The translations under genes and the position numbers were made by a program. A DNA stretch of 64,000 nucleotides. Origin: Candidatus Moraniibacteriota bacterium. GTDB lineage: Bacteria > Patescibacteriota > Minisyncoccia > Moranbacterales > UBA2206. The first letter of the stretch is position 1; each line of letters starts with the position of its first letter. Location: contig JAUSNP010000004.1 of assembly GCA_030645735.1 (NCBI GenBank), forward strand, positions 10,739 through 74,738. Reading direction: 5' to 3'. Under the pieces are notes generated by a model that saw only the letters and a list, made by a program, of their open reading frames with translations, was not told the DNA's origin and did no database searches. Positions 14,395 to 17,300 of this stretch are shown here, piece by piece.

Positions 14395-17300
14395 TAATTT
14401 ATTAGTATCTCTCGACTTAATGCATTACTGCACTTATATCTGAGACCTATCAACCTAGTCATCTTCTAGGAAATTATGTTGGAGCAAGCTCCAACAGTTG
14501 CCTTATCTTAAAGGAGGCTTCCCGCTTATATGCTTTCAGCGGTTATCCTTTCCAAACGTAGCTACTCAGCAGTGCTCCTGGCGGAACAGCTGATACACCA
14601 GAGGTTTGTTCTTTCCGGTCCTCTCGTACTAGGAAAGACTCTTTTCAAGCAACAACGCCCACAGCAGATAGGAGACCAACCTGTCTCACGACGGTTTGAA
14701 CCCAGCTCACGTACCGCTTTAATTGGCGAACAGCCAAACCCTTGGGACCTTCTCCAGCCCCAGGATGCGATGAGCCGACATCGAGGTGCCAAACCCCATC
14801 GTCGATATGGACTCTTGGATGGGATCAGCCTGTTATCCCCGGGGTAACTTTTATCTGATGATCTTCTACGCTCCTATAAGCGATAGTCGGTTCACTAAAT
14901 TCTACTTTCGTAACTGATCGACTGATGGGTCTCTCAGTAAAGCTGGTTTATGCTTTTGCACTATCAGTCCGATTTCCATCCGGACCTAACCAACCTTTGT
15001 AAACGCCTCCGTTGCCATTTAGGAGGCGACCGCCCCAGTCAAACTACCCGCCAGGCACTGTTCCCGGACTGGTATGAATAACTAAAAACGTCGTATACAT
15101 TTTTTTTGTGAACCGCAAAAGACAATACTAATAAATCCAATCATTCTTACGAACAATTAGATCTTTATTTACAACTTATGCAATTAGTTTTGTCATTTGC
15201 TGGTTTACATGTAACGAAGATTTTTGTTCCTCATAACAGTCCAGGGTTAGACTTAAAACTTCAGCAGGGTGGTATTCCACTGTTGACTCCATCTGGACTA
15301 GCGTCCGGATTTCATAGTCTCCCACCTAAGCTCGACAACTAAAATTCTAAATCAATGCCAAGTTGTAGTAAAGCTCCACGGGGTCTTTTCGTCTTGCTGC
15401 AGGTCGACGGCATCTTTACCGTCATTGCAATTTCACCGAGCTCTCCGTTGAGACAGTTCCCAAGTCATTACGCCATTGATGCGGGTCAGAATTTACCTGA
15501 CAAGGAATTTCGCTACCTTAGGACGATTATAGTTATCGCCGACGTTCACTGGCGCTTCGGGGATTGGCTTGCACCGCTCCCGTTAACGTTCCAGCACTGG
15601 TCAGGCGTCAGCCCCTATACTTCCCCTTGCGGGTTTGCAGAGACCTGTGTTTTTGGTAAACAGTTGCTTGGGAAACTTTCGCTGCGGCCTATACCTTGCG
15701 ATATAGGCGAGACATTTTGCGAACTTACGTCTAGCTTTTTTGCCGAGTTCCTTAACGGAGGATCACTCGTTCACCTTAGGCTACTCGCCCAGTCTACCTG
15801 TGTCGGTTTTAGTACGGATATTTAATGATAAGTTTAGAGACTTTTCTAGACAACCTGCTTTATTTTGTTGGTCTTTCCGAAGAAAAACCTCCAGCCATAA
15901 CTTGGGCTATACCTTCCGGATTTACCTGAAAAGCACCCTCACTATGTCTACATCAATCCAATAAGATGCAAAATATACTAGATTGCGTCCTCCCATACCG
16001 TGACATTAAATAGTCAAGGAATATTAACCTTGTGTCCATCGACTACGTCTTTCGACCTCGCCTTAGGACCGACTGACCCTGGGTTGATCAACATTGCCCA
16101 GGAAACCTTAGACTTTCGGTGTCGGGGGATCTCACCCCAATTGCGGTTACTAATACCAACATTCTTACTTCCATGCACTCCACGGTGGCTCACGCCTTCC
16201 GCTTCAGTGCGCATGGAACACTTCCCTACCGCTCACAATCTTCTTAAAAAGCACAACTTAAAAGCTACCATCATGTTGTAGCGCTTGCGTGAAATTTGAT
16301 AAAATTCACGCTTCATTTAGTTATTCCTTTTAAGAAGATTGCAAGCCCGCATCTTCGGTATCATATTTAGCCCCGTTGAATTTTCGGCGCGAAGTCTCTA
16401 GACTAGTGAGCTGTTACGCACTCTTTAAAGGATGGCTGCTTCTAAGCCAACCTTCTAGGTGTATAAGAAACTTCACCTCCTTTACCACTTAATATGAATT
16501 TAGGGACCTTAGATTGCGATCTCGGCTGTTTCCGTTTTGAGCTCCGAGCTTAGCCCCGGAGTTCTGACTGCCCAGATAAGAAACACAAGAATTCGGAGTT
16601 TGGTTGAGAAGCCTACGGCGAACCGCGGATTCTCATTCAGTATCTCTACCTCTTGTGCTCATTTAAAGGACGCTAGCCCTCAAGCTATTTCGGGAAGAAC
16701 CAGCTATCGCCAAGTTCGATTGGAATTTCTCCTCTATTCACAAGTCATCCCCGAGTGTTGCACGGCTCGTGGGTTCGGGCCTCCTTTCGATTTTACTCGA
16801 AATTCACCCTGCTCATAAATAGCTCACCTGGCTTCGGGTCTAATCCGCACTATCATGTCGCCCGTTAAGGCTCGCTTTCACTATGACTCCACTACGAAAG
16901 TAGCTTAGTCAGACAATACAGAATTAACTCGTTGGTTCGTTCTACAAAAAGCACGCCATCATGGTATTACTACCACTCTGACTCTTTGTTAGCATATGGT
17001 TTCAGATACTATTTCATCTCCCTTATCGGGATACTTTTCACCTTTCCCTCACGGTACTAGTTCACTATCGATCATTAAAAATATTTAGTCTTGGAGCTAT
17101 AGTGGCCCCTGATTCAAACGGGATTTCTCCGGTCCCGCCCTACTTGAGAATAATTACATTCGGACATTTCTTTTTCGCATAAGGGACTATCACCCACTAT
17201 GGTCACTCTTTCCAGAGTGTTCTGCTAAAGAAATAATCTCAAACCCCTATTAAAAGAGTAAAATTACCTCGCAACCCCGAACCCCGAAGGATTCGGTTTA

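Follow-up and report, generated by a model that had tools for sequence, protein, structure and literature searches.

The 23S ribosomal RNA (rRNA) gene in a 64-kb stretch of Candidatus Moraniibacteriota DNA (64,000 nucleotides (nt) of contig JAUSNP010000004.1, hereafter the window) is longer than a bacterial 23S gene normally is, which raises the question of where the extra bases lie and what would become of them when the transcript matures. We found that they form two insertions at hairpin tips, one in helix 45 (H45) and one in helix 79 (H79). The initial annotation of this DNA had implicitly treated the two as one kind, but comparison with related genes showed two classes, a sporadic element of the type known as an intervening sequence (IVS) in H45 and a conserved, covarying element in H79. 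We tentatively favour a reading in which the window holds an unlinked 23S–5S operon of a Moranbacteria-type bacterium belonging to the candidate phyla radiation (CPR), with an IVS in H45 that would be excised and an extension of H79 that would be retained.

The extra bases are two discrete insertions

The limits of the insertions were set by Rfam covariance-model alignments, made with the large-subunit rRNA model on sub-stretches of the 23S gene. The gene and its inserted elements are as follows.

14382..17563, minus strand: 23S rRNA gene, 3,182 nt (Rfam RF02541, LSU_rRNA_bacteria; 2510 bits, full model 1–2925)
15072..15233, minus strand: H79 insertion, 162 nt, 28% GC, in place of the terminal loop (E. 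coli 2210–2213), from covariance-model alignment
15062..15245, minus strand: extended H79 hairpin in full, 184 nt (E. coli, 24 nt), from folding, model and covariation
16239..16333, minus strand: H45 insertion, 95 nt, 32% GC, in place of the terminal loop (E. coli ~1173–1176), from covariance-model alignment
16231..16346, minus strand: extended H45 hairpin in full, a branched tip on a perfect 21-bp basal helix, from folding

The measured length agrees with the approximately 3.18 kb given for the gene before. Of the 257 nt that the gene has beyond the 2,925-position model, the two inserts supply 255; the excess is therefore not scattered over many small indels, and the extra 23S bases are two discrete hairpin-tip insertions. 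A covariance-model alignment had been named beforehand as the check that would tell discrete from diffuse excess, and its outcome is close to what the initial annotation had proposed: an insertion of about 168 nt at 15073–15240 and a second expansion at about 16230–16345.

Helix numbers were assigned through E. coli rrlH, with the register verified at the P-loop GGGG (2250–2253). The first hairpin corresponds to E. coli 2201–2222 (GUUGACCCG-UAAU-CCGGGUUGC). In the structure line of the model it follows the H76–H78 arm and precedes the closing strand of H75, and it is therefore helix 79, not H76–78 of the L1 stalk, as it had been labelled. The E. coli flanks quoted with that label are those of H79, which means that the alignment was right and the helix name was off. 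H79 adjoins the L1 stalk where H75, H76 and H79 meet, and some authors call H76–H79 as a whole 'the L1 stalk' (PMC3553981). The counterpart of the second hairpin is E. coli 1163–1185, which is helix 45 (given as 1170–1178 by Yokoyama and Suzuki; PMC2441807). The long extra hairpin that had been seen there, gcaatcttcttaaaa / ttttaagaagattg, belongs to the perfect 21-bp helix of the H45 insert.

The 23S core has a GC content of 46.5%, against 28% and 32% in the H79 and H45 inserts. Compared with shuffled sequences, both inserts fold stably (H79, −67.2 kcal/mol, z = −8.9; H45, −47.5 kcal/mol, z = −6.5). At gathering thresholds, Rfam matched no family in the whole window besides rRNAs and tRNAs, and a permissive search of the H79 insert alone (E ≤ 10) returned no meaningful match to an intron or any other family. 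No credible open reading frame (ORF) was found in either insert, as had been stated earlier of the first. An encoded protein or homing endonuclease was rejected as an explanation, the inserts holding only short ORFs that cross into conserved rRNA and a non-conserved ORF of 27 amino acids (aa). We likewise rejected a mobile element repeated in the window, since blastn of both inserts against the 64 kb gave only chance matches of 12–15 nt, and an assembly artefact, since homologous inserts are present in independent assemblies.

The helix 45 insert turns over among relatives

IVSs are known from helices 9, 25 and 45 of 23S rRNA, where an extended stem-loop, 100–200 nt in size (PMC8708148), stands in place of a small loop; they are sporadic, pass horizontally between lineages and are cut out by RNase III (PMC4990558, PMC8708148). 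The H45 insert lies at one of these sites, with all of its 95 nt in the H45 loop (site definition from PMC4990558), and its length, low GC content and perfect 21-bp basal helix are those of an IVS.

To compare this position among relatives, which we refer to by locus handles, we located their H45 regions from the 3' flank, as coordinates are displaced by insertions elsewhere in these genes. Local alignment scores between the window and the relatives were 7–18, which is chance level. The closest relative, L045 (Candidatus Moranbacteria GW2011_GWA2_39_41), has a 23S core that is 99.6% identical (1187/1192 over 1.2 kb) and an H45 insert of ~135 nt (163-nt H45 region) that is unrelated to that of the window (score 11). 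In L034, L032 and L069 the helix is of normal short length and the insert is absent, and L021 and L042 have AT-rich H45 inserts of ~140–150 nt (168- and 177-nt H45 regions). One H45 element is common to L042, L019 and L021 (scores 64–131) despite their differing H79 inserts. L045 also carries an extra element of ~140–150 nt in a putative helix 25 (~1380–1525; assigned by position and known IVS sites), which is an ~86%-identical copy of its own H45 element (~2150–2300; score 107). The window's gene has neither copy, despite the near-identical core. The basal helices of H45 elements are perfect throughout, 13–19 bp in the relatives and 21 bp in the window. Thus, among close relatives the H45 element is absent, replaced, shared or duplicated.

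Given the canonical site, the perfect basal helix, the hypervariability, the duplication into helix 25 and the sharing across lineages, sequence comparison indicates that the 95-nt H45 insert is a classical IVS, which would have been acquired, lost and exchanged among rRNA genes that are nearly identical. It resembles the helix-45 IVSs of Salmonella, Yersinia, Campylobacter, Leptospira and Coxiella, and the CPR insertions 23IS2/23IS4, in occupying the same helix as an AT-rich stem-loop of ~100 nt. As in those systems, H45 elements of this group have a near-perfect basal duplex, occur sporadically, can occupy H25 and H45 together (L045) and show signs of transfer between lineages. The window's insert differs in having no S23p/IVP ORF, and its host differs in being a CPR genome with a single unlinked 23S–5S operon; its excision is here a prediction from DNA. 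Short non-intron insertions at known IVS sites of CPR 23S genes have been suggested to be IVSs (Tsurumaki 2024, PMC11270868), and the H45 element fits this existing category.

The 27-aa ORF noted above begins with ATG and lies nearly entirely within the H45 insert (16233–16316, minus strand). It is too short to convince, is not conserved since the insert itself is not, and is unlike the S23p/IVP ORFs of some IVSs.

The helix 79 insert belongs to a conserved, covarying family

In the covariance-model alignment the 9-bp H79 stem and its flanks are intact around the insert. The whole extended hairpin (fold of −66.8/−67.2 kcal/mol) consists of an interrupted stem of ~50 bp that ends in a junction bearing two hairpins, one small and conserved (GCAUAAGUUGU), the other apical, 14 bp long and with GUAA as its loop. 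The family covariance model R1, described below, scores it at 185 bits.

Scanning metagenomes for the conserved 3' base of the H79 insert yielded 32 contigs, 31 of which were complete enough to use. Together with eight loci from species-representative genomes, these gave 28 unique hairpins of 121–205 nt, which come from Moranbacteria genomes and unbinned metagenome contigs. An alignment made with MAFFT only brought just the basal 15 pairs of the 28 members into register; we therefore built a covariance model from 13 long-form members and realigned 26 members with it. In this alignment, which is fitted to the model structure and made of sequences related by descent, standard pairs occupy 94.3% of cells, compared with 80.1 ± 0.6% in shuffles and at most 44% when partners are slid. 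Two-sided changes were found in 51 of the 71 pairs (27.4 ± 2.5 in shuffles, at most 22 when slid), and the covariation score was 0.292, compared with 0.110 and ~0.04, respectively.

The variation is distributed unevenly along the hairpin. The basal 15 pairs are nearly invariant and two basal 1×1 mismatches are invariant or nearly so, the middle stem shows strong covariation, and differences in length are found mainly at the tip, to which some members add an arm. No basal helix exceeds 9 bp. Within the long-form subfamily, conservation is as high in unpaired as in paired columns (0.899 versus 0.874), with 22 of 35 invariant. Identity to the window's insert is 77–95% within its subfamily; at H45, by contrast, the inserts of these genomes do not align.

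With the helix-45 IVSs the H79 insert shares its topology, an insertion at a hairpin tip, but not their site, sporadic distribution or perfect basal stem. It lies outside helices 9, 25 and 45, and is homologous in every family member found, with invariant mismatches and only short basal helices. Its features are those of an expansion segment: the tip of a peripheral helix is extended at a recurrent site while the core is left intact, compensatory changes keep the structure, and length varies distally. These comparisons suggest that the H79 insert behaves like a vertically inherited, structurally constrained expansion segment, not like a replaceable spacer. In this one gene the contrast is between H45/H25 elements, swapped between rRNAs that are 99.6% identical, and an H79 extension that the same genomes keep, covarying and constrained in sequence.

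Between the window and L045 the H79 insert shows nine differences, all of which fall in stem P4 (~15085–15100 and ~15205–15222), the most covarying segment of the family. The remaining 180 nt of the insert and the 23S core are identical or nearly so, and the patch of changes in P4 is possibly the result of a small conversion or rearrangement.

Helix 79 is a recurrent insertion site

We scanned ~185,000 species-representative genomes for loci with 166–226 nt between the conserved CUAAC and GGGNAGUUUGNCUGGGGCGGU motifs, a distance that is 36 nt in E. coli and 196 nt in the window. An upstream CTAAC accounted for 31 of the 68 loci returned, which were false positives with an H79 of normal length; in the other 37, alignment and length measurement showed genuine H79-loop insertions, +120 to +190 nt long. 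Because these 37 loci carry a genuine insertion there, H79 is a recurrent insertion site, mainly in CPR. Eight of the loci are labelled Moranbacteria or Moraniibacteriota, five Patescibacteria or Parcubacteria group, two Gracilibacteria or Altimarinota and twelve 'bacterium' without further name. The other ten bear other labels, several of them with CPR-type flanks and probably mis-binned.

Among the loci with unexpected labels, L028, L029, L061 and L069 (labelled Bdellovibrionales), L018 (Caldithrix) and L053 (Nitrospirae) have an H79 insertion with flanks near-identical to those of Moranbacteria/Parcubacteria; judging from these flanks, they are probably CPR contigs in the wrong genomes. Three further loci (L007, L016 and L040), from two 'Gammaproteobacteria bacterium' metagenome-assembled genomes (MAGs), have a very divergent 23S gene in which the L1-stalk region is partly missing and the H79 insertion is GC-rich and +120 nt long. 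This gene occurs on several contigs within the same MAG.

A literature search found no description of a bacterial H79 insertion. In the text of the survey of CPR insertion sites (PMC11270868), sites 23IS6–8 (1917, 1931 and 1952) and 23IS12–14 (2593, 2604 and 2657) bracket position ~2210, and every site from 23IS6 to 23IS14 is given as a group I intron site located in highly conserved sequence; by that text, a short non-intron insert in the H79 loop appears not to be among the named sites. What is new here is therefore H79 as a recurrent insertion site, and a conserved H79 extension family, supported by covariation, in a Moranbacteria clade, as opposed to the IVS-type turnover at H45/H25 in the same gene.

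Two systems provide the closest precedents. In eukaryotes, the expansion segment ES31L corresponds to H79a/b and contributes to the intersubunit bridge eB8 (bioRxiv 10.1101/2024.08.29.610041). Like it, the H79 insert is a branched helical extension of this same helix, conserved proximally, variable at the tip and inherited vertically in a clade. It differs from ES31L in its bacterial host and independent origin, and its retention in mature rRNA is a prediction. The second precedent is the H54a 'handle' of Mycobacterium tuberculosis, ~100 nt that are retained beside the L1 stalk and contact bL9 and bS6 (PMC5737476). It too is a lineage-specific helical extension of a bacterial 23S rRNA, and it shows that bacteria keep long rRNA rods despite RNase III. 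H54a differs from the H79 insert in helix and domain (H54 in domain III, H79 in domain V) and in phylum, and its retention and structure were shown by cryo-electron microscopy, whereas the retention of the H79 insert is predicted.

Proposed excision of one insert and retention of the other

According to the reading that we favour, the H45 insert would be transcribed within the pre-23S rRNA and cut by RNase III at its perfect 21-bp basal duplex. The insert would be discarded and, as no religation would follow, the product would be a nicked but functional 23S rRNA. The H79 insert would be kept in the mature 23S rRNA as an extension of helix 79 at the ES31L position. From membership of the IVS family we infer that excision is the most likely fate of the H45 insert. 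Retention is most likely for the H79 insert, since it is inherited vertically and covaries, its unpaired bases are conserved and its basal stem is interrupted. A perfect stem of 15 bp that flanks the 23S gene is what RNase III-type processing would lead one to expect. A look-up of contigs by exact protein match, aimed at RNA-derived sequence, returned a single contig of 2.3 kb.

Several observations weigh against this reading. No RNase III gene is found within the 64-kb window. Some IVSs are conserved and vertically inherited within a lineage, as in Coxiella burnetii (PMC4990558), so conservation alone is no proof of retention. A comparison of genes with transcripts is reported to have found removal of most insertions in CPR rRNA (Brown et al. 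2015, as cited in PMC9297842). The H79 rod is largely double-stranded and, its mismatches notwithstanding, could be an RNase III substrate. Its apparent covariation support is inflated by the fitting of the alignment to the model structure and by common descent. Finally, the H79 insert changes faster than the core rRNA (95.2% versus 99.6% identity to L045; 76.8% versus 96.5% to L034), although it stays alignable and keeps its structure.

The main rival reading, possible but somewhat less likely, takes both inserts to be IVSs. Both would then be cut out by RNase III or some other endonuclease, leaving a mature 23S rRNA in pieces of ~1.2, 1.0 and 0.7 kb that are held together by the ribosome. 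The conservation of the H79 insert would reflect either a constraint on processing or on assembly, or else an element that is younger and diverges slowly. Each insert is an AT-rich stem-loop, 70–80% paired, that replaces a loop and, at 95–162 nt, has the size and shape of an IVS, and the 23S gene is flanked by a processing stem. The vertically inherited IVSs and the absence of most checked CPR insertions from RNA, both cited above, favour this explanation too. In addition, the H79 inserts of other Parcubacteria (L012, L019, L029 and L069) are low-complexity AT-rich repeats like their H45 inserts. However, H79 is not among the known IVS helices (PMC4990558), and the window's H79 family has neither the sporadic presence nor the replacement seen at H45/H25 of the same genomes. 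Conserved unpaired nucleotides and two basal mismatches would be needless in a spacer that is excised and rapidly degraded, and basal helices of at most 9 bp contrast with the perfect 13–21 bp of the H45 elements.

Retention of both inserts as expansion segments, at ES15L-like and ES31L-like sites, is unlikely. In this case, the variability at H45 would be the hypervariability of a peripheral segment. H45 is indeed the site of ES15L, as H79 is of ES31L (PMC3553981; bioRxiv 10.1101/2024.08.29.610041), and E. coli tolerates insertions at H45 1170–1178 (PMC2441807). By the title of a study cited in PMC8708148, E. coli ribosomes are functional with unprocessed Salmonella IVSs, and no rnc was seen within the window. 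Yet the H45 element is replaced or absent between rRNAs that are 99.6% identical and is duplicated into H25 in L045; a mobile, dispensable element therefore fits these data better than an evolving structural segment. Moreover, a perfect stem of 21 bp suits RNase III ideally as a substrate, and helix-45 elements of this kind are excised in all cases studied (PMC4990558, PMC8708148).

That one or both inserts are degenerate self-splicing group I introns, with ligated exons, is very improbable: such introns are very common in CPR 23S genes, where 45% of insertions of at least 100 bp are so classified (PMC11270868), and relatives carry sizeable insertions with LAGLIDADG-type ORFs at other places in the gene, but no intron family matched in the window at gathering thresholds or in the H79 insert at E ≤ 10, simple rod-like hairpins of 95–162 nt are too small for, and unlike, a P3–P9 catalytic core, and both inserts lie in variable loops, whereas the CPR intron sites lie in highly conserved sequence (PMC11270868). 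The group I/LAGLIDADG insertions of CPR 23S genes (1917, 1931, 1952, 2593, 2604 and 2657) thus concern the same gene family and lineage and are present in relatives, but none is found in the window's gene, the inserts of which are short, ORF-less hairpins in variable loops.

Returning to retention of the H79 insert, there is a real but less than even prospect that a clade of Moranbacteria evolved a genuine conserved H79 expansion segment of ~100–180 nt, at the helix of eukaryotic ES31L, that is retained in mature ribosomes. If so, the branched H79 rod might reach ~150–180 Å if coaxially stacked (an estimate from ~60 bp), and otherwise 'minimal' ribosomes would carry one of the largest bacterial rRNA expansions. 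This would be a large expansion at the ES31L site beside the L1 stalk, in a region of tRNA exit and subunit bridging, and would mean that CPR ribosomes are not uniformly 'reduced'. It would also offer an independent bacterial test of whether expansion sites are pre-set by ribosome architecture. The H45 element, for its part, predicts a fragmented 23S rRNA in this lineage. In practice, pipelines for annotation and 23S phylogeny would be advised to mask the H45 and H79 sites differently, and the H79 family model is a possible lineage marker for this Moranbacteria clade.

The 23S–5S locus and its surroundings

The remaining features of the operon are listed below.

13841..13955, minus strand: 5S rRNA gene (Rfam RF00001, 85.9 bits)
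13956..14381, minus strand: 23S–5S spacer, 426 nt, from Rfam coordinates
17561..17575, minus strand: 23S processing stem, 5' strand of the leader–trailer duplex, from duplex folding and direct reading
14372..14386, minus strand: 23S processing stem, 3' strand of the leader–trailer duplex, from duplex folding and direct reading
18135..18253, minus strand: two sigma-70-like promoter matches, 10/12 each, consensus matches only

The order of 23S, a spacer of about 400 nt and 5S is as first described. A perfect 15-bp leader–trailer duplex (17561–17575 with 14372–14386) abuts the mature ends of the 23S rRNA, a perfect 25-bp duplex (13827–13849 with 13948–13973) flanks the 5S rRNA, and these duplexes are ordinary pre-rRNA processing stems. 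The promoter-like matches are placed between the 23S gene and the stop codon of a giant ORF of 2,109 aa (18281–24610) on the same strand. This ORF ends 717 nt upstream of the 23S gene; the initial annotation had a giant gene beginning there, 700 nt away. An Rfam scan found no 16S rRNA anywhere in the 64 kb, in agreement with the earlier statement that none is linked, and three tRNAs, all distant from the 23S gene. Unlinked rRNA genes are typical of CPR. The earlier remark that insertions and unlinked rRNA genes are CPR hallmarks is borne out in part: the lineage is CPR, its rRNA-gene insertions are frequent and documented (PMC9297842, PMC11270868), and the 23S–5S pair is not linked to a 16S gene.

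Eight relatives were compared at this locus. In all eight the 5S gene lies downstream of the 23S gene, at a spacing of 74 to ~1,450 nt, and no 16S gene is present in the DNA examined, which for L100 includes 9.6 kb upstream of the 23S gene. Their 23S genes, lengthened by additional insertions of which some contain LAGLIDADG-type ORFs, measure 3,365–5,451 nt (5,451 nt in L042), and the window's gene is the least interrupted of the nine. In L035, L012 and L006, big insertions coding for LAGLIDADG-type proteins (for example, ...WGNYLAGFTDGEGSFNVSL...) lie between H45 and H79; the window's gene is without them. The 23S–5S spacer of the window holds a 44-aa ORF, MDNNNMKSYSKKYGESLKFIFIIFSVIAIAIFSFLFFAPVINAF (14051–14185, minus strand), the C-terminal half of which is hydrophobic and transmembrane-like.

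Other genes of the window encode type IV pilus components, GatA, LigA, GyrB, RodA, bL25 and giant surface proteins; genes for uL1 and bL9, like that for RNase III, are absent from the 64 kb. Giant ORFs on the minus strand are found at 6285–10784 (1,499 aa), 18281–24610 (2,109 aa) and 24875–32218 (2,447 aa). The 2,109-aa protein, with a membrane region at the N terminus and many repeats of the form GNVGIGTT, resembles giant surface proteins of the CPR type. Further along, a large serine recombinase (46857–48443, plus strand) adjoins a tRNA-Asp/Met/Met cluster (48416–48772, minus strand), and near it are a ResIII helicase with a TnsA-like endonuclease domain (38109–40784) and an N6/N4 DNA methylase (41372–43534). 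The segment 38109–48772 may be an integrated mobile or restriction–modification island.

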